In this document: positions 31,500 through 50,864 of the stretch, piece by piece
Position numbering within the stretch: position 1 is the stretch's first letter
Layout: every line of letters begins with the position of its first letter
Source of the DNA: Vicinamibacterales bacterium
GTDB lineage: Bacteria > Acidobacteriota > Vicinamibacteria > Vicinamibacterales > JAMQPK01
Direction of reading: 5' to 3'
Length of the DNA stretch: 64,000 nucleotides
Assembly (NCBI GenBank): GCA_963746535.1
Contig: CAVVBP010000007.1
Span: 684,149-748,148 of the forward strand
Translations under genes and position numbers: made by a program
Notes under the pieces: generated by a model
Told to the model about the DNA's origin: nothing
What the model saw: the letters and a program-made list of their open reading frames with translations, nothing else
Databases searched by the model: none

Positions 31500-32284
31500 A
31501 TGCCGACAGCCCCAGCCCTGAGCGAGCCGAAAGCGCCAGCCCTTCGCGAGTCGAAAGGGCGCGACCACCTCGAAGCCCTCCTTCGCCACCGCCAGCTCGA
31601 CCACACGCTTTGGGGTCTGACCCCCGGGGGGCAGACCCCATACCCACCCGCTGGCTGGTGCCGACCGGGATTGCCCCCCTCGACGCACGCCTCGAGGGGG
31701 GTCTACCCCGCGGTCATTTATCAGAGGTGGTTGGTCCGCGGTCTTCGGGGCGCCTCGCGGTGGCCGTGTCGGCGCTGGCCGGTGCGACGTCGCGCGGCGA
31801 AGCCGTCGCCCTCATCGATCCCCTCGACATGTTCGATCCGGTGTCGGCCCATCACATCGATTTCCAACGCATGCTGTGGGTGCGCGGCGAGGCGACGTCG
31901 TCGTCGCGCGTCAGTTTGTCGTTGGAATACGGCACGCTGCAGAAAAGCCTCGATCGTGGGGTGAAGGCGCTGAACATCGTGCTGCAGGCGGGCGGATTCG
32001 GGCTCGTCGTGCTCGATCTCGGAGAGGTCGCGCCTCAGGCCATCAAGCGGTTGCCGTATACGACATGGCTGCGGCTGCAGCGCGTCATCGAAGGCAGCGA
32101 CACGGCGTGCGTGCTGGTGGGCAGCGAGCCGATCGCGCGCAGCAGCGGGGGAGCGACGGTGCTCCTGGCCCCCGGCTCCGGGCTCCCGGCTGAAGCCAGC
32201 TTCATTACCGCTCGCGTCGTTCGGTCAAGAGCCATCGAGAGCGATCACCATGTTCGCGTGCCTTTATCTGCCGCCGCCTGCTAA
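31500..32284 (+). CDS. imuA: ImuA-like (RecA/SulA-fold) translesion-synthesis accessory protein, one frame change in a C5G6 run at 31621..31631
   Basis: Track ORF 31610..32284 contains PTGIAPLDARLEGGLPRGHLSEVVGPRSSGRLAVAVSALAG...GFGLVVLDL. The N-terminus (MPTAPALSEPK...LEALLRHRQLDHTLWGLTPGG) lies in track ORF 31458..31964. Adding one G in the run joins them (..GGADPIPTRWLVPTG..). The start could be ATG 31500 or ATG 31458. Confidence 0.75.
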
Positions 32285-33680
32285 CGCATCGTTGGTGGCA
32301 CAGCGCTTTAGCGCTGTCATCCAACTTGCGCGCGATTTTTCGCCGCGGGTCGAAACGCATGGCGATCGGACGGTCACGCTCGACATCAGCGGGTTGGGCA
32401 GCCTCATCGGCGAGCCCCGGGCGATCGGCGAAGAGCTGCGTCGCGCTGCGGCCGATGCGGGCCTGCGCGTGCACGTGGCCGTCGCCGCGACGTCAACCGC
32501 CGCGATGCTCCTCGCCCACGGCCGCGCGGGGTTAACGGTGGTGGCACCGGGCGACGAAGCCAGAGCGATCGCGCCGCTGCCGATCGATTTACTCGATCGC
32601 CTTGAAAGGCCCATCGCATCCGCCTTCGCTCGCCAGGAACCTAACGAGCTTCGGCGCGACAAGCCCATCGCACCTAACTTAAGGCGTTGGGGCCTCAAGA
32701 CGCTCGGCGATCTGGCGGCGCTGCCATCGAGCGAACTCTCCGCGCGCCTCGGGCAAGCCGGGCTTCGCTGGCAGAAGTGGGCGCGTGGCGACGAGATGCG
32801 GCCCCTGGTGCCCGCCGGCGCGACAGAGCAGTTCGAAGAGGCGCTCGATCTCGAATGGCCCATCGAGGGGCTCGAGCCGTTGTCGTTCGTGCTCGCACGG
32901 CTGCTCGATCCGTTGTGCGATCGGCTGGAACGCCGCGATCGCGGTGCCGTCGCGCTGCGCGTCACGTTGAAACTGGTGTCATCCGCGCTGCACGAGCGCG
33001 TCGTCGAGCTGCCGGCGCCGATGCGCGACGCGCGTGTGCTGCGCACGCTCGCGCTGCTCGATCTCGAGTCGAATCCGCCGTCCGAAGCGATCGATCGCGT
33101 GGCCATTGCGGTCGACGTCACCGAAGGGCGTGTGCTGCAGTTCGGGTTGTTCGCCCGCGCGCTGCCGGCCGACACGCTCGCGACGCTCATGGCCCGCCTC
33201 GGCGCGCTCATGGGCGCGGATCGTGTGGGCGCGCCGGCGCTGGTCGACACCTATCGTCCGGGGGCGTTCGCCATGGCGAAGTTCGATCCTCCGGCAAATG
33301 ACTCCGGGAGCCTTTTTCCCAGCCATCACCTGAAAAAGGCTCCCGGAGTCTTGTGTGTGCGGCGATTCCGCAGCCCTATCCCGGCGCGTGTCGCGCTCGA
33401 ACACGGCCGGCCCGTTCGCGTGACCACCGATCGCCGGGGATTTGGCGGCGGCGGCGTCGAGCGCGCGGAAGGCCCCTGGCGATCGTCCGGCGACTGGTGG
33501 CGGGCGTCCGCCTTCGCTCGCCAAGAACCTAACGAGCTTCGGCGCGACAAGCCTCTCGCACCTAGATTTGGTCCTTGGAACTGCGATGAATGGGATGTGG
33601 CCTTGCGCGACGGAACGACGTATCGGATCTCACACGCGCTCGATTCGGACGCGTGGTTTGTTGAGGGCCTAATGGACTAA
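32250..33680 (+). CDS. imuB: ImuB-like Y-family-polymerase-related protein
   Basis: 476 aa. The N-terminus MFACLYLPP...FSPRVETHGDRTVTLDISGLGSLIG...LRVHVAVAATSTAAMLLA is typical of ImuB. It overlaps imuA by 35 nt and precedes dnaE2. Confidence 0.85.
   Translation: MFACLYLPPPANASLVAQRFSAVIQLARDFSPRVETHGDRTVTLDISGLGSLIGEPRAIGEELRRAAADAGLRVHVAVAATSTAAMLLAHGRAGLTVVAPGDEARAIAPLPIDLLDRLERPIASAFARQEPNELRRDKPIAPNLRRWGLKTLGDLAALPSSELSARLGQAGLRWQKWARGDEMRPLVPAGATEQFEEALDLEWPIEGLEPLSFVLARLLDPLCDRLERRDRGAVALRVTLKLVSSALHERVVELPAPMRDARVLRTLALLDLESNPPSEAIDRVAIAVDVTEGRVLQFGLFARALPADTLATLMARLGALMGADRVGAPALVDTYRPGAFAMAKFDPPANDSGSLFPSHHLKKAPGVLCVRRFRSPIPARVALEHGRPVRVTTDRRGFGGGGVERAEGPWRSSGDWWRASAFARQEPNELRRDKPLAPRFGPWNCDEWDVALRDGTTYRISHALDSDAWFVEGLMD
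32619..32676 (+). repeat. 58-nt direct repeat, copy 1, in frame inside imuB
   Basis: tccgccttcgctcgccaggaacctaacgagcttcggcgcgacaagcccatcgcaccta. It encodes SAFARQEPNELRRDKPIAP and sits at codon phase 0 relative to the imuB start. Confidence 0.9.
33507..33564 (+). repeat. 58-nt direct repeat, copy 2, in frame inside imuB
   Basis: It differs from copy 1 at 3 positions by eye. It has the same codon phase and encodes SAFARQEPNELRRDKPLAP. Confidence 0.9.
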
Positions 33681-33686
33681 CGCAGC

Positions 33687-33799
33687 ATTGGGAGATTGGG
33701 GGATTGGTAGATTGCGAGATTGTTGGCAGTAATCTCACAATCGTCATTCATCAATCCAACAACAATCTCTCAATCTCTCCAATCTACCAATCTTCCAAT
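33687..33799. repeat. Long imperfect hairpin (GATTGG/GAGATTG octamer family) filling the imuB-dnaE2 intergenic gap
   Basis: The left arm 33687..33725 equals the reverse complement of the 3-prime 39 nt (33761..33799) of the right-arm tract 33757..33799 at 33 of 39 positions (hand alignment). It ends 7 nt before the dnaE2 ATG. Confidence 0.85.
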
Positions 33800-33805
33800 G
33801 TTCAT

Positions 33806-36800
33806 ATGTACATTGAGCTTCATACCGCGTCGGCTTTCAGTTTTTTAGAAGCCGCATCCTTACCCGAGGCACTCGTCGACCAGGCCGCGCGCTTCGGGTA
33901 TCCAGCCATCGCGCTGCTCGATCGCGATGGCGTGTACGGCGCTCCACGTTTTCACCGCGCCGCATCAGCCGCCGGCATCAAGGCCCTCATCGGCGCCGAG
34001 CTCACGCTGAACCCCACGAACCCCACGAACTCTACGAACCCACGAACCCACGAACCCACGAACCTATTGCGTCTTCCTGTCCTCGTGGAATCCGCGGAAG
34101 GCTACCGAAACCTCTGCAGGCTCGTCACCCGCATGAAAATGCGCGCGCCGAAAGGTGAGGGGGCGCTCGCACTCGACGAGCTCGACGGGCAGACACGCGG
34201 GCTCGTCGCGCTCGCCGGACGCGAGCTGCTGGGGTTCGACGACGTTACGGCGTCGGCGGCCTCATCGATCCGCTCGTCGGGTTGTTCGGGCGCGACCATG
34301 TGTATGTGGAGCTGCAGCGCCATTTCCTGCGCGACGAAGAGGCCGACAACCGCGCGCTGGTCGATCTCGCCGGCGGCGTTTCACGTGCCGCTCGTCGCGA
34401 CCAACGGCGTGCGGTTCGCGGAGCCGCGCGAGCGTCCGTTGTTCGACGTGCTCACGTGCATCCGCCACAAGACGAACCTCGCGCAGGCGGGCCGGAAGCT
34501 GGCGCGCAATGCCGAGCGCTACCTGAAGCCGCCCGAAGAGATGGCGCGGCTGTTTCGCGATCTGGCCCGCGGCGGTGACGTCGACCGAGGCGCTGGCCGA
34601 ACGGCTGCGAATACACGATGGCCGATCTCGGCTATCGCTTTCCCGACTATCCCGTGCCGCCGGGCGAGACGCACGCCTCGTTTCTCCGCAAGCTCACCGA
34701 CCTGGGCGCGCGCGAGCGCTACCGGCCGTATCACGACCGCGCCCGCGCGCAGATCGCGCGCGAGCTCGATCTCATCGAGCGGCTCGATCTCGCCGGCTAC
34801 TTCCTCATCGTCTGGGACATCGTCAATTTCTGCCGGCAGCAACGACATCCTCGTGCAGGGACGCGGGTCGGCCGCCAACAGCGCCGTCTGCTACAGCCTT
34901 GGCATCACGGCCGTCGATCCGGTCGGGATGGATCTGCTGTTCGAGCGGTTTCTCTCGGAAGAGCGCGGCGAGTGGCCCGACATCGATCTCGATTTGCCGA
35001 GCGGCGATCGGCGCGAGCGGGTGATTCAGCACGTCTACGAAAAATACGGGCGGCTCGGCGCGGCGATGACGGCCAACGTCATCACCTATCGCGGCCGGAG
35101 CGCGGCGCGCGAAGTCGGGAAGGTGCTCGGCATCGACACCGGCGCAGGTCGATCGGCTGGCGAAGGTCATGAGCCAGTTCGAGTTCGTCGATCCGGCCGA
35201 CACGCTGCGGACGCGGCATGGTCGATGCCGGCTGCGAGCTCGATCATCCGACGTTCCGATTGTTCGCCGAGCTCTGGCACGCGCATGCAGGATCTGCCGC
35301 GCCATCTCGGCCAGCACTCCGGCGGCATGGTGATTTGCCAGGGACGGCTCGACAGCGTCGTGCCGCTCGAAAACGCGAGCATGCCCGGCCGCGTCGTGCG
35401 TGCAGTGGGACAAGGACGACTGCGCCGACATGGGCATCGTCAAAGTGGATCTGCTCGGCCTCGGCATGATGGCCGTGCTGCAGGACGCCATCGACTGTGA
35501 ACTCTGGTCGGGACGATCGGACCATGATCCCGGCCACAGATCCTGACCGTCGATCTCGCGCATTTGCCGCCCGACGATCCCGCCGTGTACTCGCATGCTG
35601 CAGGAGGCCGACACCATCGGCGTCTTCCAGGTGGAATCGCGCGCGCAGATGGCGACGCTGCCGCGGCTGCATCCCGAGCGTTTCTACGATCTCGTCGTCG
35701 AGGTGGCCATCATCCGGCCCGGGCCGATCGTCGGCAACATGGTGCATCCCTATTTGAATCGGCGCGCCGGACGCGAGCCGGTGACGCTACGCGCATCCGT
35801 CGCTCGAGCCGATTCTCGACGCGCACGCTCGGCGTGCCGCTGTTTCAGGAGCAGCTGCTGCGCATGGCGATGGTCACCGCCGGCTTCACGCGGCGGCCAG
35901 GCCGAAGAGTTGCGGCGCGCGCTCGGGCTTCAAGCGATCCGAAAAGCGCATGAAGCAGGTGGAGGTGAAGCTGCGCGAGGGCATGGCGCAGCAACGGCAT
36001 TACGGGCGAGGTCGCCGATCAGATCATCTCGTCGATCACCGCGTTTGCGCTGTACGGATTTCCCGAGTCGCACGCCGCCAGCTTCGCGCTGCTGGCGTAT
36101 GCGAGCGCGTATTTGAAAGCGCATTTCCCGGCGGCGTTCTACACGGCGCTGCTCAACAACCAGCCGATGGGTTTTTATCATCCGGCCACGCTCGTCAAGG
36201 ACGCGCAGCGCCGCGGCGTGCGCTTTGCCAGCATCGACGTGCAGCACTCGGACTGGCACTGCCGGGTCGATACGGACGGCTCGATGCGATTGGGGCTTCG
36301 CTACGTGTCCGGGCTTCGCGAGGAGGTCGGACGCGTCATCGAAAAATCCGGGATTAGGGATCGGGGATTAGGGATTGGTTCTGTCACGGGTACCACACGT
36401 GTGTGCCCCAAATGCGGATGCGATGATGAGTCGATGATCGAGACCGTAAGCGCAGGCTCGTATTTCTGCAATACCTGCTCGCACGATTGGACCGTCCCAG
36501 CGCAACCGACATTGCCAATGGAGCCACCACTACGATTCAAATCCGTCGACGATCTCGTCAACCGAACCGGGCATTCGCCGTGAGGAACTTCAGACACTCG
36601 CCGACATCGGCGCGTTCGCCTCTTTCGGTTACGAACGCCGCGAGGCTCTGTGGCAAATTGAAAAATCCATCCGGCCTGCGGGTGAACTTTTCCAGCAGGA
36701 CGAAGCGGGACACGCGTCACAGAACCAATCCCTAGTCCCCAATCCCCAATCCCTGGAAGCGGAGCATTGTCCATTGCCGGCGATGTCGGCCGAAGAGCGT

Positions 36801-37200
36801 CTGGCGGCCGATTACGCCGGTACTCATCTCACCATCGGTCCCCACCCGATGGCCATGCGCCGTTCCGAACTGGCGATGCGCGGCGTGCTGCGCGCCGTCG
36901 ATCTGCCGCACGCGCGCAACGGCCGGCGCATTCGCGTGGCCGGCAGCGTCATCACGCGGCAGCGTCCGGGCACCGCCAAGGGATTCGTCTTTCTCACGCT
37001 CGAAGACGAGACCGGCATCGCCAACATCATCGTGCGGCCCGATTTGTTCGATCGCGAACCGTCTGACGATCCTCGAGCAGCCATTCCTGCTCGTCGATGG
37101 CATCCTGCAGAATCAGGAAGGCGTGACGTCCGTCAAAGCCGAACGGTTACACGCGCTGGCGAACGCCGCCATTGCGATCGATTCACACGATTTTTATTAG
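33806..37200 (+). pseudogene. dnaE2: Error-prone DNA polymerase DnaE2 (Pol III alpha family), interrupted by more than ten frameshifts and carrying repeat and zinc-ribbon insertions
   Basis: ATG 33806 gives MYIELHTASAFSFLEAASLPEALVDQAARFGYPAIALLDRDGVYGAPRF (PHP domain). Further conserved blocks are spread over track ORFs 33704..35500, 34282..34578, 34575..35024, 34618..35172, 35595..36116 ([21 protein letters not shown]), 35564..35953, 35950..36357, 36113..36583 and 36774..37211 (OB fold: RIRVAGSVITRQRPGTAKGFVFLTLEDETG). The stop TAG lies at 37198..37200. Confidence 0.9.
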
Positions 37201-37223
37201 GCGCTTCTTAGAAAGATGTAGCA

Positions 37224-38194: not shown

Positions 38195-40457
38195 TCAGAA
38201 CGCGTGCCCGATGCCGAAGTACCACCGGCCGGTGGTTCGGCTTCGACGGCTCGTCAGCGGGACGCCGAAATCGATTCGCAGCAGGGCAAACGGCGAGTTG
38301 ATGCGGATGCCCCCGCCGGCGCCCGCTTGAAGGTCTGTGAGCGAGAAGTCGCTGGCCTTGGGAAAGATGTTGCCGGCATCCACGAACGCGACGCCGTGCA
38401 CCCATCCGAACAGGAACATCCGCGCTTCCTGGTTGAGAATCAGCATGCCGTTCCCACCCCTGGCGTCGCCGAAGACATCGACGGCGCCGAGGCTGTCTTC
38501 GGCGAAGCCCCGCACGCTCGTGCCTCCTCCGGCGTAGAAGCGCTCGCTGGGAATCAGATCCTGTTCGAACCCGCGGCCAAACCCGAGCCTTGCGGCCGAC
38601 GCCAGCACGAGGCGGCGATGCACCTGCCGGTAGTAGTGCTGCTGTGCCAGGTACCGGACGAAGCGCAAATCCGAGCCGAGAGCCTTCGTGCCCAGCTCGA
38701 CGCCCGACGAGTGGAACCAGCCATCCTGCGGTGCGATCGGATCGTTTCGCCTGTCCCACGCATACGTGCCTGTCAGCCGCGCGACCTTGGCTTGCAGCTC
38801 CAGGGGCGGAATGCCGGGCAGGGGATCGGGCTCGAAGATGTGCGTCCGTGTATAGTCGTAGCCATAGGTGACCCCCATCTTCGGCGACAGCGCAACCCTC
38901 TGCTCGGCGGTGATGCCCGATTCGTCTTCGACGAACGGTGTCGCCCCTTCGGGGGTGAAGTCTTCGCGCGATTTCGTCGCGAACAGGTTCGTCGTCACCG
39001 GCAGGCCGAAGAATCGCGGGAGCGAGAGGACGCCGCGCAGCAGGCGGCGGTCCGCCTCGATCTGCGCGGCCGCGCCGGCCGAGATCGCCTGCCCGAACAG
39101 GTTGCGCCGCAGAAAATCGACGACGAGCGCCGGGCGCAGCTCGCGGTCGAATTCGACCGGCGTGATCGTATCGTTCACTCTGAACCCGTAGCGGAGCCGA
39201 TACGGCGCGAGCTCCTGCAGCGTCACCTCGGCGCGCACGCGCTCCACTCGGCCGCCTGGGTCTGTCTCGAACGGGACGAGCGCGATATCGGCCGTTCGAA
39301 ACGCGCTTGTGTCGTACAGACGCGTTTCGGCGCGGAGGAACTCGGCCTGATTGACAGGCTGCCCGATCTCGACGTCGAGCGCCCGATCGATGACGCCACG
39401 ACGGGTGATCTCCGCGCCCTTGACGTCGAGACCGGCGAGCACCTGCTGAACCCCTTCGTTGACAACGAGCACGAGATCCACCGAGGCGCGCGCGGCATCG
39501 ATCGCCGGCGTCACGGTCACGCGCACGTTGTTGTATCCCTCGCGGAGGTAATCGACTTCGACGGCCCGCCGTGATGGCTCGAGTGCCGCCGGTTGGTACG
39601 CCGATCCGGCCGCGACGCCGAACGCGGCGGCGATCTGATCGCGGGAACGCGCCTGTGCCCCCTGCACGTCGAGGCGGGCCACCGTGTACTGCCGGCCCTC
39701 GCTGATCTGCACCGGCAGCTCGGCCGACCGGCCCTTGAAGATAGCTGGCTGCACCTTGGCGGACGCGTCGAGGTATCCGCGCAGTCGATACTGCTGTTCG
39801 ACGGCGGCCTGGAGAACAGACGGGTCCTGCCAGCTCGACGCGTCAAGAGCGCGCGTGCGAACGAGGGCTTCGAGCGTTGACGCCGACAGCGCCTGCTGGC
39901 CCGAGAAGACGATCCGCCGATCGGTGAATCGGGCGCCCGGATCGATGCGGACGGCGATTTCCTTCAGCGCGGCGTCCGGTTCGGAGACGACCATCGCCCG
40001 AACGTCGGCGCGGAGATATCCGTCGCCTGTGAGAGATTCCTTCGCCATCGCCGCGAGATCGTCCAGCAGGAAGTCGTCGAACACGGCCCAGACCCACGCG
40101 TCTTCCATCCGTTCGACAAGGGCCCCCGGGAGTGGATGCCCATCGATCGTCAGCTTCGTCTGTGGGCCGCGTTCGATGTCGGTACTCGAGAGCCACACCG
40201 GATTGTCCGGTTGGCACAGCCGTTCGCCGTGCCGCGATCCGCGCTTCGAGAAACGCCCGTTCGTGGTAGAAGCGCTGCAGACGGTCACGATCCTGTTGCC
40301 AGCGGTAGAAATCGAACCGCTCGCCTGTCTTCAAATGGAGTTGCCGGCGAATGTCTTCGACCGGATAGCCCGGGCTCCCGCTGATGCGCACGTCCGTGAC
40401 ACGTTCGAGGGAACGCTCGGCGGTCTCCGATCGCGGCGAAGACGAGCCGGATCCTCC
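38195..40457 (-). CDS. Omp85-family protein (TamA/BamA-like POTRA repeats plus 16-strand-type barrel), continuous in frame with the upstream TamB-like ORF; one frame change near 40195..40200
   Basis: The barrel and POTRA regions lie in track ORF 38195..40288, ending ...GRWYFGIGHAF. The first POTRA (LERVTDVRISGSPGYPVEDIRRQLHLKTGERFDFYRWQQDRDRLQRFYHERAFLEARI) is encoded in the TamB frame (track ORF 39843..45014). It has no signal peptide and no separate start. Confidence 0.8.
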
Positions 40458-43400
40458 GAAACTGAACTCGTGACGGAACTCGTACGAGTGGCTCCCGTCA
40501 TCCTGCGTCGCACCACGCACTTCCACGCTCTGAATCGGACGATAGATGGCAATCCAGGTGATGTCGCCGGTCCCGCTGAGGGCTTGCGAAAAAAGGACCT
40601 CGACATTGCGGCTCAAGTTCTTCCCGACCGTGAGACGCGCGCTGGGATCGGTGTCGGTGGCCAGCAGATCGAAATCCGACGCCGCGGCGCCGAGGCCCTG
40701 GCTCAGCTGCACGGTGTCGAGGCCCACCGCCCGCCCGGCGAACCCCAGCAGCTCGCCCGAGAGCAGCATCAGCAGCTGGCCGCGTGCGATGTCGGTGTTG
40801 GCGATGGCCGTGCTGTCGGCGCGTTGGCCGGTCAGGAGCAGCGAGACGAGCTCGGCCTGACTCACGCCCGGGCTTCGCAGGTTCGCGCTGAGCGTTTCGG
40901 GCGTGCCGCTCACTTCGAGCGTGACGTCGTAACGCTGCACGCGTGTCTGCAGAGCGAGATCGACGGTCGGCTCGAACTTTCTTGCGTTTGTGAAATTGAC
41001 CGTCCCCCGGACGACGTCGTAGGTACGGCCGCTGAGGAACACATCGCCGCCTTCCTCTATGGCGACGCGCCCTGTGGGCACCGGCTCGTTGAGCGTGCCG
41101 ACGATGCGGAGGTTGGCCGACATGTCGAGCCGGGCGTAATTGTTGTCGACCACGACCCCTTCTGCCGTCTTGACGTCGACATTGAGCAGGACGCGGTTGA
41201 ACCAATCAGGCCCGGCCTCAGCGGTGGGGACGGTGGCCTGTGTATTCGTGGTGAGCAGCTGGGCCGTGAGGCTCACGGGCTTGCGGTACGAGCCGCGAAG
41301 CACGGTCACGCTTCCCGTGAGCGTCGGACTCGTGTCCGATACGTTGAGCTGCAGATCGGCGTCGATTTCGCTGCGGAGATTGTCCGGCACTTCGAGTGCG
41401 AGACCGCGTGCCGTGATCGCGATCGATCCGCCGGAGAGGGTGAAATTCGGATATTGGATTCCACCGGCAATCCGGAGCGTACCGCCGTTCGCGTTCGCCG
41501 TGATCTCGCCGAGCCGCAGCCCGTCGCGCGCAAACGTCAACGTGCCTTGCAGGTCGCTCACGGCGAAGCGCGGTCTTCGCAGGACGAGGCCGCCGTTTTC
41601 GATCGTCATGCGGCCATCGACCAGCGGCTCGTCGGCGAGACCGGTCACCTTCACGTCGATCGCGGCTCGTCCGCTCGTCGCGACGTCGCGGGAGAACGCG
41701 CTCAGCATGCGCAGGTCGAGCGTGCCGTCGAGCGCGATGTCGAGCCGCGGTGAGTCGCCGGTGAGGAGCGCGCTGCCGGACACGTTGACGCGATTGCCGC
41801 CCCCTGCCCACGTCCAGTCGAGAACCTGCAGCCGGCCGTCTGCCAGTCGAAACCGGGTCGGGCGGCTCTGATTTAGCGGGATCCGCGCCAGCGAAAGCTC
41901 CGCGCGCTCGAGCGTGATCTCCGCCCCGATGTTCTCGACGTCAAGCGAGGTCGCGGTCACGGCGACGACCGCATCGACTTGACCGGTGACGTCCGCGAGT
42001 GCGCCCTCGGGAACGAACGATGACAGCACCGCCGGTGTGATCGAACCGATGCGCAGCGTGGCGCGAACGGGGTCGCGTGTCGCGGGCAACGTCGCGGCGT
42101 ACCACTTGGGAAGCTGGTTGGCGAACACTGCGGCGGGTATTCGACCCGTGCCCGTGATCCTTGCGCCCTGCCAGGTGGCGCCGAGCTCGCGAAGATCCAT
42201 GACCCCGGCGGCATAGGAGGCGCGCACGTTAACGTCGGTAGCGGGGAGCATGGCGTTCGAAACAAGCGTGGCCGACGCCAGCGTCAGATCGGCAGAGATG
42301 TCGGGCGACCGCGGACGTCCGGTGACCCGCATCTGCAGATCGATGGTGCCGGAGGCGTCCAGTGCGTCCGCATTCGTGACTCGAACGAGCGGGATCAGAT
42401 CGGCGATCGGCCCGGTCAGCGAAATCCGCAAGGCCTCCCCGGCGGAGGCCCCGGGTGCCAGGCGGCCGTTCGCCGCGAGGCGTACTGCACCTATCCGTAG
42501 CTCGAGATCTTCGGCGACGAGCGTATCGCGCGAGTAACGCAGGCGTGCCGGGCGTGCTCGCACCGAGGCGCCGTTCACGGTCGCATCGATCGCCTGGAGG
42601 TCAACCTGGGCACTGGCGTCCTCTAACGCATCGAGCCGGCCGGAAGCCTGGAGCCGCAGCCTGATCGTCCCGTCCAGCGACGCGATCGACGGATGTTTCA
42701 GATCTCGGGCGAGTCTCCCAAGGGCCATGCCGTCGACCACGACATCGGCTGTAAACGTGCGCGGCTCGGCACCGGCGATGCGGGCACGGCCGAACGCATT
42801 CAGCTCCGGCGCGTCAGCGGTCAGCTCGAGCAGACGTCCGACACCCTGGACCTCGATCCTCGCAGGTCCCACATCGAATCCCTCATACGTGAGGCGGGAG
42901 AATTGCACGAACCCGTCGACCTCCGGCACCGCAAACGTTCCCGTGCTGGCTAATTCGAGATCGAACCGCGCATCGACGGGGAGCGCGTCGTTCGAAGCCT
43001 CAAGCGTCAGATTGGTCCCTTTGAAGCCGGCTGAAAATCGTCCAGTCGAGAGCGCGTACGTGCCGGTCGCGTCCAGGGTGCCTTCCCGTTGATTCAGCGT
43101 GAGGCGATCGACGATGACGCTGCGATTGGCAAGGTGCAGTGTCGATCGCAGCCGCTGCACAGTCTGCCCGGCGATCTGCAATCCGTCCGACGCGACCTCA
43201 GCGGCGACAGACGGGTTGTCGAGTGTTCCCGCGATGCGCGCCTCGATGGTTGCGGATCCGGACGGTCGCCATTCTTCAGGAAGGTCGCCGGTAAGCAGGT
43301 CCAGTTGAGGCCACTCGCCGGTCAACTCGCCACGAAGGGCGCGGGTTTGGAGATCGATCGAGGCCCGGCCGGCCAGCGTGTTGGCACCGAGCGTCGCCTG

Positions 43401-45014
43401 CAGCGCATCGAAATCGATGCGGTTGGACGAGGCAGAATACCGGCTCGTGACGGCACCAGGTCCCGTGTTGTTGGAACGGAGATCGGCGAGCTCGATCGTG
43501 CCGGTTGCGGTTGGGGCACCGATCGTGCCCGCGAGCTCACCGGCGATCGTCGCGCGCCCGACAAGGTCCGACAGGATATCGGAATCGCCCGCGAGTCCGG
43601 CCTTGCGCGCGAGCGCGACGGCATCGGCAAGATCGCTGATGTGGAGATCGGCCTGTCCGCTCAAGGTCGAGGATGCCGGCGTCTCTACATTGATCCGGCC
43701 CTGCGAATGTCCCGTCATCTCTGCCGCGTCGCCGATCCGGTGCGCGTGTGAGAGCTGCCACAGGCCTTCGTCGAGCGTCAGCGTGGCGCTGCCCGACAGG
43801 GGAACGTCGCCACGCGAAGATGGCGTCGCGGCCAGGTTGTTCTCGATCGTGCCGCGTGAGGTGAGGAACGCGCGTCCCGTCCAGCTCAACGCGGCCGATC
43901 CGTCCGCAACGGACGCGAAGCGCGGGACAGATGCGGCGTCGACGAAAGCAGCGACGATCGTCGAAAGCTGAAGACTCTGCCAGCTGAGCGTGGCACTGCC
44001 GATCGCGCGTTCGTCAAAGGGCACGCGCGCACTGCCGGCCAGCTCGCCGCCGGCAGCCGTCACCCGAAGCGACTCGATCGCGGCTCCCGAACCGGTGAGG
44101 ACCGTGCGAGCTCTCACAGAGAGCGCGCCAACGTTCGGCCAGTTGAGACGATCGCCGGCAGCGTCGATCGTCGTCGACATCGTATCGAGCCGGCCCGCGG
44201 CCGTGCCCGAAAACGAAACCAGTCCGGTTGGCGCACGGTCGAACCCGATCCACGGCGTGACGCGGGCCAGATCGAGGTGCCCTGCATATTGCAGCGCGGC
44301 CAGATCGAACCCGGGCAGCAATGTCAGCCGTCCGCCAATTTCGGCTCGACCCTCCGGGGCATCGAGCACGATGTTTTCGAGCGCGAGCGCCTGGCCATCG
44401 AAGGCGAGTCGTCCACCACGCGTCGAGAGACGGGTTTGCCGCTCGTCAACAGTGACCGACACGCTCGTCAGAGGCATCGGTCCATTCAGGCGCCCATCGA
44501 TTGTCTGCTCGAGCGCGATGCCGATGTCGCTCGCCGTCACCAGCACCGCGGCCGACGGATCGTCGTAGCGAACGCGAAGACCTCGAACGATCAATCTCCT
44601 GATGTCGAGCGGACCCGAAAACGATTCTGTGGTCGTCGCTGAACCCCGGGGGAGATTGAGCTGCCCGTCTGCTTCGCGCACGATGACGAGGCTGGGATTC
44701 TCGACTTCGAGCGATTCGACGGCGATCGGCCCGCGCACGATCGTCCACGGAAGGTTCAGCCGCAACTCTTCCGCCGAGAAGAACGGTGTCCTGGATCCGT
44801 CGGCGGTGAGCGTGACGCCGCCGGCGCTGACGCTGAGCGTGAGCAGGTTGTAGTCGAGGCGCGAGATGGTGGCTCGAATACCCGAGGAGGAAGAGATCCT
44901 GGCGACGGCCCACGATCGCACGGCCGAACGCGCGGGAGGCGAGTGGATGGCAATCGCAAAGAGAACCGCAAGCGCCGTGAAGGCCGCACCCAGGAGGATC
45001 CGCCGCGTCATCAT
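40458..45014 (-). CDS. tamB: TamB-like translocation and assembly module protein (AsmA-like superfamily), no stop codon before the Omp85 part
   Basis: The start is ATGATG at 45009..45014. It has an N-terminal signal-anchor (RRILLGAAFTALAVLFAIAI) and a ~1500-aa repetitive beta-rich body. The C-terminal DUF490-type ending is ...IYRPIQSVEVRGATQDDGSHSYEFRHEFSF, with the last Phe codon at 40458..40460. Confidence 0.8.
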
Positions 45015-45203
45015 GCGCGTCGTCCCGTTGTACTCGCGGTACCGTTGTGCATCCGTGCGTAGTACCCCATGCCACCGGATCCAATAACCCGAACCCAGAA
45101 CCGCAGCACCCAGAACCAGGAACCGCCAGGTGATCCCTGTGGTAGTCTAAGCCAATTCAATCGATTTCCCGTGATTCCCAGGGGATTCCGGAGGGGTTTC
45201 AGA

Positions 45204-47606
45204 ATGAGGACCTCATCGCTTCTGGCCTTCGCCATGTGGCTGGTTACCCTTGCGTCGCCTGCACTGGCACAGGCGCCAGCTGCCGATCGCCGCATCGAAG
45301 TGACGGTGCTCGACTCGCAAGGCTTGCCCATCTACGGCGCGCAGGTGACGGCCACGCTGCCGGTCGGCAATCTCAGCCGCACCGGTGCGAGCTCGAGTGA
45401 ACGCTTCACGATGGAAGGGTTGGCTCCAGGTGTGTACACCGTGCGCATCTCGGCGAGCGGGTTCCAGATGCAGACGCAGACCGTCGATCTCACGGCGCAG
45501 TCGTCGCAGACGGTGGAAGTGCGGCTCAATCCTGCCGGTGTCACCGAACAGCTCGTTGTCACGCCGGGCCGGATCGAGCAGCGCATTGCCGACGTGCCGG
45601 CCAGCATCAACGTCGTCACCAACGAACAGATTGCACAGTCACCGGCTGTCGTGGCGGACGATGTGCTGAGGCAGGTGCCGACGTTCAGTCTTTTCCGGCG
45701 GACGAGCAGCATCGTGGCGAATCCGACGGCGCAGGGCGTGTCGCTGCGCGGTATCGGGCCGAGCGGCGTCAGCCGCACGCTCGTACTGCTCGACGATATC
45801 CCGTTCAACGATCCGTTCGGCGGGTGGGTGTACTGGACGCGCGTGCCGATGATGAACTCGGAGCGCATCGAGGTGATCGACGGCGCGACATCGAGCCTCT
45901 ACGGCAACTACGCGATGGGCGGCGTCATCAACATCGTGAGCAACCGCTCGACGCCGGGCACGCTGGTCTTCAAGCCGCAGTACGGCAACCTGCAGACGCC
46001 CAAGATGGATTTGTTCGCCAGCCACGTGTGGTCCAGGCTGGGCCTGATGTTCGACGCCACGACGCTTCAAACCGACGGGTACAAGACCGTGGCGGAAGAA
46101 GAGCGCGGCACGATCGATAACGAAGCCAACGTCAAATACAACAGCTTCAGCACGAAGCTCGATTACAACCCGACCGATCGCGTCAACCTGTTCATGCGCG
46201 TCGGTGTGTTCGATGAAGAGCGGAACAACGGCAAGATCGGCGAGGTAAACGACACGAACTGGAAGTACGGCAGCGGCGGTGCGCGGTTGCGCTTCTCCGA
46301 AGGCAGCACCGTTGAAGCCCGGTTGTTCTACGATCACGTGGACTTCTTCCAGAACACGTTCGCGGTGCCCGCGGCGACGCCACCGCGCAGCCAGAGCAAC
46401 CTCTCGCTCGAGAAGACGGTGCCGACCCACGCCGTTGGCAGCATGGTGCAGTGGTCGCGGCCCTACCAGCTCGGCTCTCGTACGCACGTCGTCTCGGCCG
46501 GGACCGATTTCCGGTGGATCGACGGCGACAGCGACGAGCTGACGTACGTGGCGCCCACGGGGACGCCGCCTGTCGTTCACCGTGTGGCCGGCGGCACGCA
46601 GCGGTTCTTCGGATTCTTCGCCCAGGATCTGATCGAGGTGATGCCGAAGCTGCAGCTGACGCTGAGTGCCCGCGTGGATAACTGGAGCAATTACGACGCA
46701 CACAATCTCGAGACGACGATCGCGACCGGTAACCCGACGGCGAACAACAACCCCAACCTGCCGGAGAAGTCGGACACGGCGGTGAGCCCGCGTGTGGCTG
46801 CGCTCTATCGCGCGACCGACCGCTTCTCCGTGTGGGGCAGCTTCAGCAAGGGCTTTCGCGCGCCGACGCTGAAAGAGCTCTACAGCCCGTTCCGCGTGGG
46901 GCAGGTCCAGACGCTCGCCAACGCGACGCTCGGACCCGAGCGGCTGACCGGCGAGGAAGTGGGAGCCACCGTGGCGGCGACCGACCGCGTGACCCTTCGC
47001 GGGACGTTTTTCAACAACCGTGTGAACAATCCGGTTGCCAACGTGACGGTCGCCCAGAACAACGTGCCTCCCACTCCGGGGTGTGCGGGCGCGCCCATCT
47101 GCCGTCAGCTTCAAAACCTCGGGAGCACGAACATCGCCGGATTCCAGACCGATGTGTCGTACCGCCTCAACGGTCAGTTCGCCGTGTCGGCCGCGTACGT
47201 GTTCGAAATCGCGAAAGTCCACGAGTCGAAGGTGGACGCGGCCGGCACCGATCTGACGGGCAAGTATCTCGCGCAGGTGCCGAAGAATCGCGTCTCGCTC
47301 GGGTTCAACTACATGAATCCGCGGTTCTTGAACGTGGCCATCGAGAACCAGTTCGTCGGCCACCAGTACGACGACGACCTCAACACCGCGGCGATCTTCC
47401 CGACGATCCCGGAGAAGCGCGAAGTGGGGCTGCCGAAGTACAACGTGTTCAACTTCACCCTGTCGCGCACCATCAACCGCACCGTCGATCTGTTCTTCGG
47501 CGTACAGAATCTGTTCGACGTCACCTACTACGTGGGCACCAACCCGACGACCATCGGCACACCGAGGTTGGTGAATGGCGGGATTCGGCTGAAGGTTGGC
47601 AGGTAG
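45204..47606 (+). CDS. TonB-dependent receptor with N-terminal carboxypeptidase-regulatory-like domain
   Basis: In-frame ATG 45204 in track ORF 45069..47606. It has a signal peptide (MRTSSLLAFAMWLVTLASPALAQA). An Ig-like domain is present (IEVTVLDSQGLPIYGAQVTA...GVYTVRISASGFQ). The plug region contains RIEVIDGATSSLYGNYAMGGVINIV. A long beta-barrel follows. Confidence 0.85.
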   Translation: MRTSSLLAFAMWLVTLASPALAQAPAADRRIEVTVLDSQGLPIYGAQVTATLPVGNLSRTGASSSERFTMEGLAPGVYTVRISASGFQMQTQTVDLTAQSSQTVEVRLNPAGVTEQLVVTPGRIEQRIADVPASINVVTNEQIAQSPAVVADDVLRQVPTFSLFRRTSSIVANPTAQGVSLRGIGPSGVSRTLVLLDDIPFNDPFGGWVYWTRVPMMNSERIEVIDGATSSLYGNYAMGGVINIVSNRSTPGTLVFKPQYGNLQTPKMDLFASHVWSRLGLMFDATTLQTDGYKTVAEEERGTIDNEANVKYNSFSTKLDYNPTDRVNLFMRVGVFDEERNNGKIGEVNDTNWKYGSGGARLRFSEGSTVEARLFYDHVDFFQNTFAVPAATPPRSQSNLSLEKTVPTHAVGSMVQWSRPYQLGSRTHVVSAGTDFRWIDGDSDELTYVAPTGTPPVVHRVAGGTQRFFGFFAQDLIEVMPKLQLTLSARVDNWSNYDAHNLETTIATGNPTANNNPNLPEKSDTAVSPRVAALYRATDRFSVWGSFSKGFRAPTLKELYSPFRVGQVQTLANATLGPERLTGEEVGATVAATDRVTLRGTFFNNRVNNPVANVTVAQNNVPPTPGCAGAPICRQLQNLGSTNIAGFQTDVSYRLNGQFAVSAAYVFEIAKVHESKVDAAGTDLTGKYLAQVPKNRVSLGFNYMNPRFLNVAIENQFVGHQYDDDLNTAAIFPTIPEKREVGLPKYNVFNFTLSRTINRTVDLFFGVQNLFDVTYYVGTNPTTIGTPRLVNGGIRLKVGR

Positions 47607-47693: not shown

Positions 47694-48701
47694 CTATGAA
47701 CTGACGATTGCTTCGGGGCGTCCCGTGGCCACGGCCTTGCGAATTCCCCTCACACGATTCCCGATCTTGAACGACGTGTCGAAGATCTTCCCGACGCGAA
47801 TGCCGCCGGGTAGCGTGTGGCGCGCGACAGCGGCCAGCCCGGCCGAGGCGATGCAGCCGCAGTTGGCGCAGTCCGGGTTCCCGCCGAACTGGCACGGGGT
47901 GATGGGTTTCTCGAAATTCGCCGACACGCACGCCGTGGTCATCGCGAAGATGCATTCGTCGGGCGAATGCGGAGGCCGCGCGTAGCACGTCGATCGAGCC
48001 CTTTCGGCATCCGCACCTTGGGGTAGCGCGATCGCAGGCTCATCAGTTCGGCGACCACGCGCTCGCGATCGGCCTTCGTAAGCCGTTCGGCCGAAATCTC
48101 ACCGACCTGTGGCGTGTAGAGGCTGAACCACAACTGCGAAACCGCTTCTTTTCGACGACCAGAATTTCGCGAACTCTTCGAGGTAGCCGTCGCGCCGCAC
48201 CTGCTGGCGCGTGACCGTGCAATGGACGGTAATGTCGTGCCCCTCGATGTGCTTCAGGATGCGCTCGTAGGTGGCGGGCTTGCGGCGCTCGTCGTGCTCG
48301 GGCTGCAGACCGTCGATCGAGACGACCAGCTGCAGGCGAGGGAGACCGGCCCACTCGAGAGGAATCTGGCGCACCGCGCTCGTGACGAGCTGCGTGTACA
48401 GGCCCATCCCGGCCATGCGCGGAAGAATCTCGTTCAGCTCGCGGTAGCGCACCAGCGGCTCGCCGCCGACGATCGACACGTGCAGCGGTTTGTACTTCGC
48501 GATCAGGGCAAACATTGCGTCCACGAGCTCCTGCCCCTTGAAGTCCTGCAGCTCGCGCAGCCTGACGTCGCCGCCCAGATGGTCGTCGCCGTATGCATAG
48601 CAGCCGGGACATGTCAGTGGACACTCCCGTGTAATCTCAATTGAGAGGTTGGGCTGGTAGCCCGTCAGAATCCTGCCCCACGCCCGGATGATGCCTTCCA
48701 T
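47694..48701 (-). pseudogene. Radical SAM protein with Cys-rich SPASM-like C-terminus, two frame changes
   Basis: Track ORF 48099..48701 contains the CX3CX2C cluster (ITRECPLTCPGCYAYG). It continues in 47939..48133 (LWFSLYTPQVGEISAERL...) and 47694..47942 (TPCQFGGNPDCANCGCIASAG). Confidence 0.7.
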
Positions 48702-49904: not shown

Positions 49905-50864
49905 ATGCTCGTCAAAAAAGCCTCTGATATACGTTCGTCAGAAATCACGGACAAGAAGCACTATCTGGCCCGTCGCGAGTTCATCCGAGCCGCCGCGCTG
50001 ACGACCGCCGGTGCGGCCGCCGGGGCGCTGGGCGCCGGCGATGCCGAAGCGCAGTCGTGGCCGCGCGTGAAGATCGCCGGGCCGCTCAAGGAGTCCGGCT
50101 GGGGCAAGGGCGAGAAGCCGAATGCCTACGAGGACATCACGAGCTACAACAACTACTACGAGTTCGGCACCGAGAAGGACGAGCCCGCGAGAAACGCACA
50201 CTCGCTGAAGACCAAGCCGTGGACGGTGAAGATCGACGGTCTGGTCAACAAGCCGGCCGACTATCAGCTCGAAGACATCCTGAAGCCCGAGACGCTCGAG
50301 GACCGCATCTACCGGCTTCGGTGCGTCGAGCGGTGGTCGATGGTGATTCCGTGGGTCGGTTTTCCGCTGGCGAATTTGCTGAAGCGCGTCGAGCCGAAAT
50401 CGAACGCGAAGTTCGTCGAGTTTACGACGCTCCTCAATCAGACGCAGATGCCGGAGACCCGGCGCGGCGTGCTCGACTGGCCGTACCTCGAAGGGCTGCG
50501 CCTCGACGAGGCCATGAACCCGCTCACGATTCTCGCGGTGGGCCTGTACGGTGAATATCTTCCCAACCAGAACGGCGCGCCGATCCGCCTGGTCGTGCCC
50601 TGGAAGTATGGCTTCAAGAGCATCAAGTCGATCGTGCGCATCCGCCTCACCGAGAACCAGCCGATGAACAGCTGGCAGTTGAGCGCGCCCAACGAGTACG
50701 GGTTCTATTCCAACGTGAACCCCGAGCGCGATCACCCGCGCTGGTCGCAGGCGCGCGAGCGCCGCATCGGCGAGTTCCTGATGCGGCCGACGGTGATCTT
50801 CAACGGCTACGGCGAACAGGTAGCGTCGCTGTACAGCGGAATGGACCTGAAGAGATACTATTGA
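49905..50864 (+). CDS. msrP: Protein-methionine-sulfoxide reductase catalytic subunit MsrP (YedY)
   Basis: 319 aa. It has a Tat-type signal ([21 protein letters not shown]). It also contains [28 protein letters not shown] and [19 protein letters not shown]. Confidence 0.9.

Follow-up and report, generated by a model that had tools for sequence, protein, structure and literature searches.

Gene Structure and the TamB/Omp85 Junction

A natural covalent fusion of a TamB-type protein with a BamA-like Omp85 protein is very probably encoded by one gene on the minus strand of contig CAVVBP010000007.1 from a Vicinamibacterales bacterium, a soil acidobacterium (assembly GCA_963746535.1). The 64,000 nt of this contig that were analysed are referred to below as the window, and all positions are numbered within it. 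The same fusion is conserved in the acidobacterial classes Vicinamibacteria and Thermoanaerobaculia, and the one break in its reading frame, at position 40181, is most likely an assembly error. [quoted passage not shown]

The gene begins in an open reading frame (ORF) of 1,723 codons at 39843..45014 (-), whose first residues, MMTRRILLGAAFTALAVLFAIAIH, are followed by a long Ala/Gly/Thr-rich sequence of beta type. The TamB part ends with ...GSHSYEFRHEFSF (longer excerpt ...GATQDDGSHSYEFRHEFSF), with the final Phe codon at 40458..40460. In the same frame, the sequence then continues through the linker GGSGSSSPRSETAERSL into the start of a POTRA domain, ERVTDVRISGSPGYPVEDIRRQLHLKTGERFDFYRWQQDRDRL... 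(longer excerpt ERVTDVRISGSPGYPVEDIRRQLHLKTGERFDFYRWQQDRDRLQRFYHERAFLEARI...). The rest of the Omp85 protein lies in ORF 38195..40288 (-), with the C-terminal end ...GRWYFGIGHAF. Deleting the surplus base at 40181 yields a single ORF of 2,272 codons plus stop at 38195..45014 (-), without any internal stop and with a predicted mass of about 242.5 kDa for the repaired product. An earlier note on this DNA had described a TamB frame passing its C-terminal strand and a Gly/Ser-rich linker into a POTRA repeat, with the Omp85 body in the second ORF, and direct reading reproduced both parts of that description. The length of about 2270 residues that it had deduced for a single chain agrees with the repaired ORF, which carries TamB, POTRA and Omp85 domains in this order. 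Likewise, locus L002, 94% identical, is intact at 2,274 codons.

At the junction, neither a stop nor a start nor a signal peptide for a separate Omp85 protein was found by direct reading of the frames and by hydropathy, in agreement with what had been claimed. The other two minus-strand frames between 40100 and 40560 contain stops and no recognisable protein sequence. Over the whole protein, the only segment with Kyte–Doolittle hydropathy above 1.6 (19-residue window, 2.37) comprises residues 5-24, RILLGAAFTALAVLFAIAIH, encoded at 44943..45002 (-), which corresponds to an N-terminal hydrophobic signal-anchor. The maximum over residues 1490-1640 is just 1.08, and therefore there is no internal signal peptide at the junction. 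A separate Omp85 protein translated from an internal start was ruled out, since no hydrophobic segment is present and the alternative frames hold stops.

The TamB-like (AsmA-like) portion spans residues 1-1519 (40458..45014, minus strand, as are all features of the gene given here). Its last strand, HSYEFRHEFSF (residues 1509-1519, 40458..40490), resembles a beta-signal and ends in Phe; it is supported by motif conservation and by a strand in the AlphaFold2 model. It is followed by a flexible Gly/Ser/Pro-rich linker of 17 residues (1520-1536, 40407..40457), recognised from its low model confidence and sequence variation, so that 18 residues separate the last TamB strand from the first strand of POTRA1. 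Five POTRA domains (residues about 1538-1935, 39209..40403; AlphaFold2, Pfam and Foldseek) and a 16-strand Omp85 beta-barrel (residues about 1938-2272, 38198..39202; Pfam and model) complete the chain, with the stop codon at 38195..38197. Since the linker and 753 further residues follow the strand HSYEFRHEFSF, the protein as encoded has no free TamB C-terminus. The gene structure, the domain order, the conservation of the junction and the lack of an internal signal peptide are direct observations.

Conservation of the Junction in Related Genomes

Nine database proteins with 28-70% identity carry the junction in a single frame, as the TamB motif YEFRHE..FG, a variable linker of 12-18 residues and the POTRA1 motif GDRFDF. 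The sequence of the linker varies while its length is kept: the distance between the end of the beta-signal motif and GDRFDF is 38-44 residues. For the scan of genome loci, a four-sequence junction alignment was used, a nine-sequence one being too diverse.

A locus scan with one genome per species gave 26 loci, all from Acidobacteriota and mostly from Vicinamibacterales, with metagenome-assembled genomes (MAGs) of Luteitalea among them. In this search of related genomes for the same junction, proposed in the earlier note, the junction is read through in one frame in 23 of the 26 loci. All 13 loci outside the MFD and chromosome-level records read through, each at full length or open to the contig end, and most of them are named in the manner of short-read assemblers. 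The ORF is intact, with 2,274-2,430 codons, in 12 loci (L002, L004, L005, L006, L012, L013, L015, L016, L018, L020, L023 and L025), among them several contigs with short-read-assembler names and one chromosome-level record. The same Pfam architecture was obtained in the four intact loci checked (4/4), including the chromosome-level OY970174.1.

When 1.84 billion cluster representatives (50%-identity clusters) were searched with a profile, 529 matches at E ≤ 1e-30 were returned. Lengths were counted for the 146 newly returned representatives among the top 150 matches: 74 have at least 2,000 residues, and of these nearly all end in Phe (72/74) and most carry an N-terminal hydrophobic anchor (64/74). 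The architecture is also found in Thermoanaerobaculia (Thermoanaerobaculaceae; P0311, MGV8041006.1, 1,905 residues) and in other Acidobacteriota (P0307, MCU0230131.1, 2,055 residues). Judged from these sequences, the fusion is real and conserved in the classes Vicinamibacteria and Thermoanaerobaculia. The end of TamB and the start of POTRA share their frame both here and in the relatives, which upholds the earlier argument that a single indel could not have created the fusion.

Orthologues encoding a separate Omp85 protein with its own signal peptide at the junction, named beforehand as the finding that would speak against a fusion, were looked for and none was found among the 26 loci. Two candidates for such a separate protein were rejected. 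P0007 (737 residues, start MTDVRIAG) is really the product of a frameshift inside the linker on a contig_N-named contig, and the start of P0139 falls inside the TamB terminal strands.

Many entries of the family are incomplete. In the MFD contig_N MAGs, the 6.8-kb gene is broken and gene callers produce fragments from it, such as P0007 without a signal peptide, and several fragments of the family carry out-of-frame Arg/Pro-rich tails. Because indels break the gene in these MAGs, the database entries of the family are mostly partial.

Frame Break at Position 40181

The two frames meet at CTCGAGTAC[C]GACATC, and deleting the C at 40181 joins them; by tblastn, they abut at 40182/40180. Comparison with relatives identifies this single extra base (TAC[C]GAC, 40181..40181, minus strand), which shifts the frame within POTRA1. 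The earlier note had counted one frame change and placed it near 40195..40200; the number stands, and the position is corrected to 40181. In L002, L003 and L008, with 91-96% nucleotide identity over the gene, the extra C is absent and all three read CTCGAGTA-CGACATCG, while protein P0004 (94% identity) has VALEYDIERGPQTKL in one frame across the site. After the shift, the frame stays fully open for 661 codons with its domains intact.

A second gene of the window, a dnaE2-like gene at 33665..37208 (+), 2-5 kb downstream of the fused gene, shows at least three frame changes. Since this gene is split across frames as well, an assembly indel is the likely cause of the extra C. Related loci with a broken gene (L003, L007, L008, L009/L001, L011 and L026) carry single-base indels at differing positions. 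All of them are MFD... MAGs with contig_N record names, and no broken locus occurs among the 13 loci from other sources. The MFD/contig_N naming suggests long-read assemblies, and the pattern of broken loci fits the homopolymer and indel errors expected of these. From these sequence comparisons, the break at 40181 most likely has no biological meaning and reflects an indel introduced by an error-prone assembly.

Domain Assignment of the TamB Half

Hidden Markov model searches of the repaired translation, a check that had been suggested with the original reading, matched all three of the Pfam families TamB, POTRA and Omp85. The TamB C-terminal domain (PF04357, formerly DUF490) covers residues 1171-1517 (40464..41504) with E = 6.2e-38 and 131.5 bits against a cut-off of 22.4, and the match extends over profile positions 3-381 of 381. 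Towards the N-terminus, DUF748 narrowly passes its cut-off (52.5 bits against 50), and the matches to AsmA and YhdP remain below their cut-offs. The chain thus has the single N-terminal anchor and the AsmA/DUF748-type region expected of TamB bridge proteins. With NCBIfam TamB NF047952, 61.7 bits were obtained against a cut-off of 825, so that the equivalog level is not reached. By these scores, the TamB part is a distant TamB, as expected for the phylum.

The family profile of the TamB part aligns to residues 928-1199 of the 1,259 residues of E. coli TamB (PDB 9xdc chain B). Since the C-terminal remainder is similar in length to that of E. coli TamB, the part is complete to its natural end. 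The YEFRH motif of the last strand is kept across homologues, and the TamB fragment is all-beta in the secondary structure of the AlphaFold2 model. A phmmer search of the PDB with the junction region as a single sequence gave nothing, the matches having come from profiles.

Omp85 Half and Structural Model

On the repaired protein, Pfam POTRA matches with E = 2e-25 and 89.7 bits, the first match starting at residue 1538, and POTRA_2 matches as well. Pfam Omp85 (PF01103) covers residues 1971-2272 with E = 4.7e-44 and 151.7 bits against a cut-off of 24. The half has the barrel domain, the terminal aromatic residue (...GIGHAF) and the POTRA domains of the Omp85 superfamily. The best-scoring NCBIfam family is BamA TIGR03303 (OM_YaeT), at 240.7 bits and below its cut-off of 297.15, while TamA NF047950 yields 93.9 bits against 625, and there are five POTRA domains, not three. 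The best matches of a PDB profile search are BamA chains. A feature of BamA that the fused half lacks is its own cleavable signal peptide as a stand-alone protein.

The last 1,102 residues were modelled with AlphaFold2 from a 46-sequence alignment, with a mean predicted local distance difference test score (pLDDT) of 80 and a predicted template modelling score (pTM) of 0.57, at which the relative placement of domains is uncertain. The model shows, in order, TamB terminal helices, a last set of beta-strands ending at residue 1519, the linker, the POTRA domains and the barrel. The last TamB strand is at fragment residues 339-349, and the linker has pLDDT below 50 at fragment residues 353-364. 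Five beta-alpha-alpha-beta-beta POTRA units (mostly with pLDDT of 80-93) and 16 barrel strands follow. The prediction of the junction, which the earlier note had also recommended, hence places a disordered linker between the TamB terminal strands and POTRA1. In a Foldseek search, the top matches of the model are full-length five-POTRA BamA chains (E about 1e-38, about 800 columns, ~820). By profile scores and predicted fold, the half is BamA-like and not TamA-like; of the TamA/BamA-like partner originally proposed, the Omp85 assignment holds and the TamA likeness does not.

No second Omp85 or TamB gene was found in the 64-kb window. Elsewhere, the stand-alone long Omp85 proteins P0251 (979 aa) and P0254 (1143 aa) contain POTRA and Omp85 domains without a TamB domain, and they share 23-25% identity with the fused Omp85 half. 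Acidobacteria have been reported to possess long BamA paralogues with many POTRA domains, and these two proteins may belong to them.

Proposed Mechanism and Alternative Explanations

On the model of the homologous E. coli TAM, the chain would be anchored in the inner membrane by its N-terminal helix, and the TamB part of ~1,500 residues would span the periplasm as a lipophilic beta-taco groove. The Omp85 half would be exported within the same Sec substrate and its 16-strand barrel inserted in the outer membrane; being exported as part of the same chain, it would need no signal peptide of its own. The last TamB strands (YEFRHEFSF end) would dock on the Omp85 half of the same chain, at strand 1 of the barrel, at the POTRA domains or at both, from where the 17-residue flexible linker would lead back to POTRA1. 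This would give a TAM-like conduit that stays permanently assembled and serves to transfer phospholipids and/or to assemble outer-membrane proteins. The topology, the intramolecular docking and the function are drawn here by analogy with the characterised systems. Docking of the TamB end on the Omp85 partner would follow from the covalent link and from the E. coli structures, and a permanently self-docked TAM-like machine would be the simplest reading of the gene.

Among the other explanations, an assembly chimera or a gene-calling artefact joining adjacent genes might be suggested by the many database entries of the family that are fragments with out-of-frame tails. The comparative data leave it practically no probability, and it was ruled out, since 23 of 26 independent loci, obtained with several assemblers and in several projects, have the junction in frame, the frame is kept in junctions that have diverged to 28-70% identity, and 74 cluster representatives are full length. 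A frameshift at 40181 that is real in the strain would imply a recent pseudogene, or a truncated TamB-POTRA1 protein ending at 39843 together with an untargeted Omp85 fragment. The extra C does stand in the sequence as given, which speaks for this reading, and there is a small chance that it is a genuine recent frameshift. Such a frameshift is nevertheless improbable in view of the long open frame with intact domains downstream of the site, the three close relatives without the extra base, the dnaE2-like gene that is also frame-broken, and the related long-read-style contigs that break at other, non-conserved positions. In addition, an Omp85 fragment started from GTG 40288 would be without a signal peptide. 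A programmed +1 ribosomal frameshift at the extra base, setting full-length fusion against truncated TamB, would have a single point in its favour, namely that a +1 shift at TAC-C-GAC would restore the frame. Known +1 frameshift sites have an in-frame stop codon, and there is none at this site. As the base is missing in the three closest relatives and the intact distant homologues are single ORFs, this possibility was discarded as next to nil.

A further alternative concerns the fate of the product. The fusion might serve only to export the Omp85 half, with the linker being cut in the periplasm to release a two-subunit TamB and Omp85 complex. The linker is disordered, variable and rich in Gly/Ser/Pro/Arg, and hence accessible to proteases, but its alignment contains no conserved cleavage motif and its length is kept, at about 12-18 residues, as would be expected of a tether more than of a spacer to be discarded. 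Such a polyprotein is considered unlikely, although less so than a real frameshift. Tentatively, and at somewhat short of an even chance, the product would instead be an uncleaved chain of ~242 kDa integral to both membranes through its helical anchor and its own 16-strand barrel, with the TamB terminal strands permanently at the barrel seam as an intramolecular hybrid barrel. Against this permanently docked arrangement stands the pTM of the model, at which the relative placement of the domains is uncertain, and 18 residues would have to reach from the barrel rim to the POTRA1 tip of a five-POTRA arm. In a more extreme version, the fused Omp85 may be the main or only BamA of these bacteria.

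Genomic Neighbourhood

On the plus strand of the window, an imuB-like gene (IMS family) at 32250..33680 is followed by the dnaE2-like gene, which encodes an error-prone Pol III alpha subunit. The latter is found in pieces, with PHP and DNA_pol3_alpha at 33665..35497, the finger domain at 35547..36113 and HHH_6 at 35969..36580. Decay of the gene would be one explanation, an indel-prone assembly the more likely one. Opposite the fused gene, antisense ORFs at 39684..41753 (+), 689 codons, and 38204..39574 (+), 456 codons, are typical shadow ORFs of DNA with 64% GC content, with no evidence of being genes.

The divergent neighbour at 45069..47606 (+) encodes a TonB-dependent receptor with an N-terminal CarboxypepD_reg domain. 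At the related locus L001, the fused gene likewise has a receptor with these domains a few kb upstream, encoded on the opposite strand; its placement may be conserved synteny or a coincidence. Upstream of the receptor of the window, a radical-SAM-domain ORF at 48099..48701 (-) and a molybdopterin-binding oxidoreductase-domain ORF at 49905..50864 (+) have no apparent connection to the fused gene.

Novelty and Implications

No description of a natural TamB-Omp85 fusion was found in the full-text literature searched, which is absence of evidence only, most subscription journals being outside its coverage. Fused proteins are already present in public databases under generic names, as BamA or YaeT in JGI, with a combined BamA/TamB name in two cases, and genes of the family carry partial names such as "TamB domain-containing" or "BamA". 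Because of these partial names, and because the genes are often split by indels in long-read-style contigs, the architecture is easily overlooked. Two known partners are fused here in a way that is conserved across the lineage, and the result is not a new kind of machine.

The role of the TAM is under debate, as a phospholipid bridge, an outer-membrane protein assembly factor, or both. A widespread natural fusion with a short, length-conserved linker from the TamB strand to POTRA1 provides independent evolutionary evidence for a permanent unit, and it shows that a free C-terminus is not required of TamB. It thus bears on the debate about a stable hybrid barrel, and it would place one chain in both membranes. 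If the chain is uncleaved, a TamB-Omp85 machine would never need to dissociate to work, and the protein would be a rare case of one chain being inserted in the two membranes of a diderm cell. The fusion also provides structural and genetic studies with a ready-made single-chain construct, and it raises a question of biogenesis, namely how the barrel of an inner-membrane-anchored chain of 2,270 residues crosses the periplasm into the outer membrane.

Comparison with Known Systems

With TamA-TamB of E. coli and Citrobacter, the fusion shares a TamB-type protein that has its anchor in the inner membrane, a long part across the periplasm, a DUF490 domain and a beta-signal-like end strand, as well as an Omp85 partner in which POTRA domains are combined with a barrel of 16 strands. 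In E. coli, strand 1 of TamA pairs with the beta-signal strand at the C-terminus of TamB, and a stable hybrid barrel with six TamB strands has been observed by cryo-electron microscopy (preprint PMC13119328), while POTRA1 of TamA is required for TamB docking (PMC4525385). Here, in contrast, there is one polypeptide instead of two, and the order is TamB then Omp85, not tamA then tamB. Unlike E. coli TamA, the Omp85 half has five POTRA domains instead of three, falls far below the TamA cut-off (94 vs 625 bits) and lacks its own signal peptide.

Spirochaetes have the gene order tamB then bamA (Heinz 2015, PMC4494059), and in Borrelia, several POTRA domains of BamA are reported to be contacted by the C-terminal domain of TamB (PMC11361582). 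The TamB-BamA pair of Borrelia burgdorferi resembles the fusion in its five-POTRA BamA partner, the absence of a dedicated TamA and the gene order, but its proteins are separate and its BamA has its own signal peptide, whereas here neither a stop nor a signal peptide is present and a linker of ~17 residues joins the two. In Acidobacteria, a second BamA copy adjoining TamB, proposed as the origin of TamA, has been described as a BamA-TamB operon (Heinz et al. 2015, PMC4494059). The phylum and the linkage of a BamA-like paralogue to TamB are shared with that operon, although its genes are separate, whereas those of the present locus stand in the opposite order and form one gene; a fusion is unmentioned in that paper.

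Other Omp85 proteins also carry a partner or passenger N-terminally in one chain, such as the patatin-Omp85 protein PlpD and Omp85-WD40 proteins, the latter having been compared with BamA fused to BamB (Heinz and Lithgow 2014, PMC4104836). Their partners are soluble periplasmic or surface domains, in contrast to the inner-membrane-anchored bridge of 1,500 residues found here, with which one chain would sit in both membranes. Finally, in the chloroplast TIC236-TOC75 system, a TamB homologue and an Omp85 homologue are reported to link the inner and outer envelope membranes (bioRxiv 10.1101/2021.04.25.441383); there, the two are separate polypeptides in a eukaryotic organelle, whereas here they form one chain.

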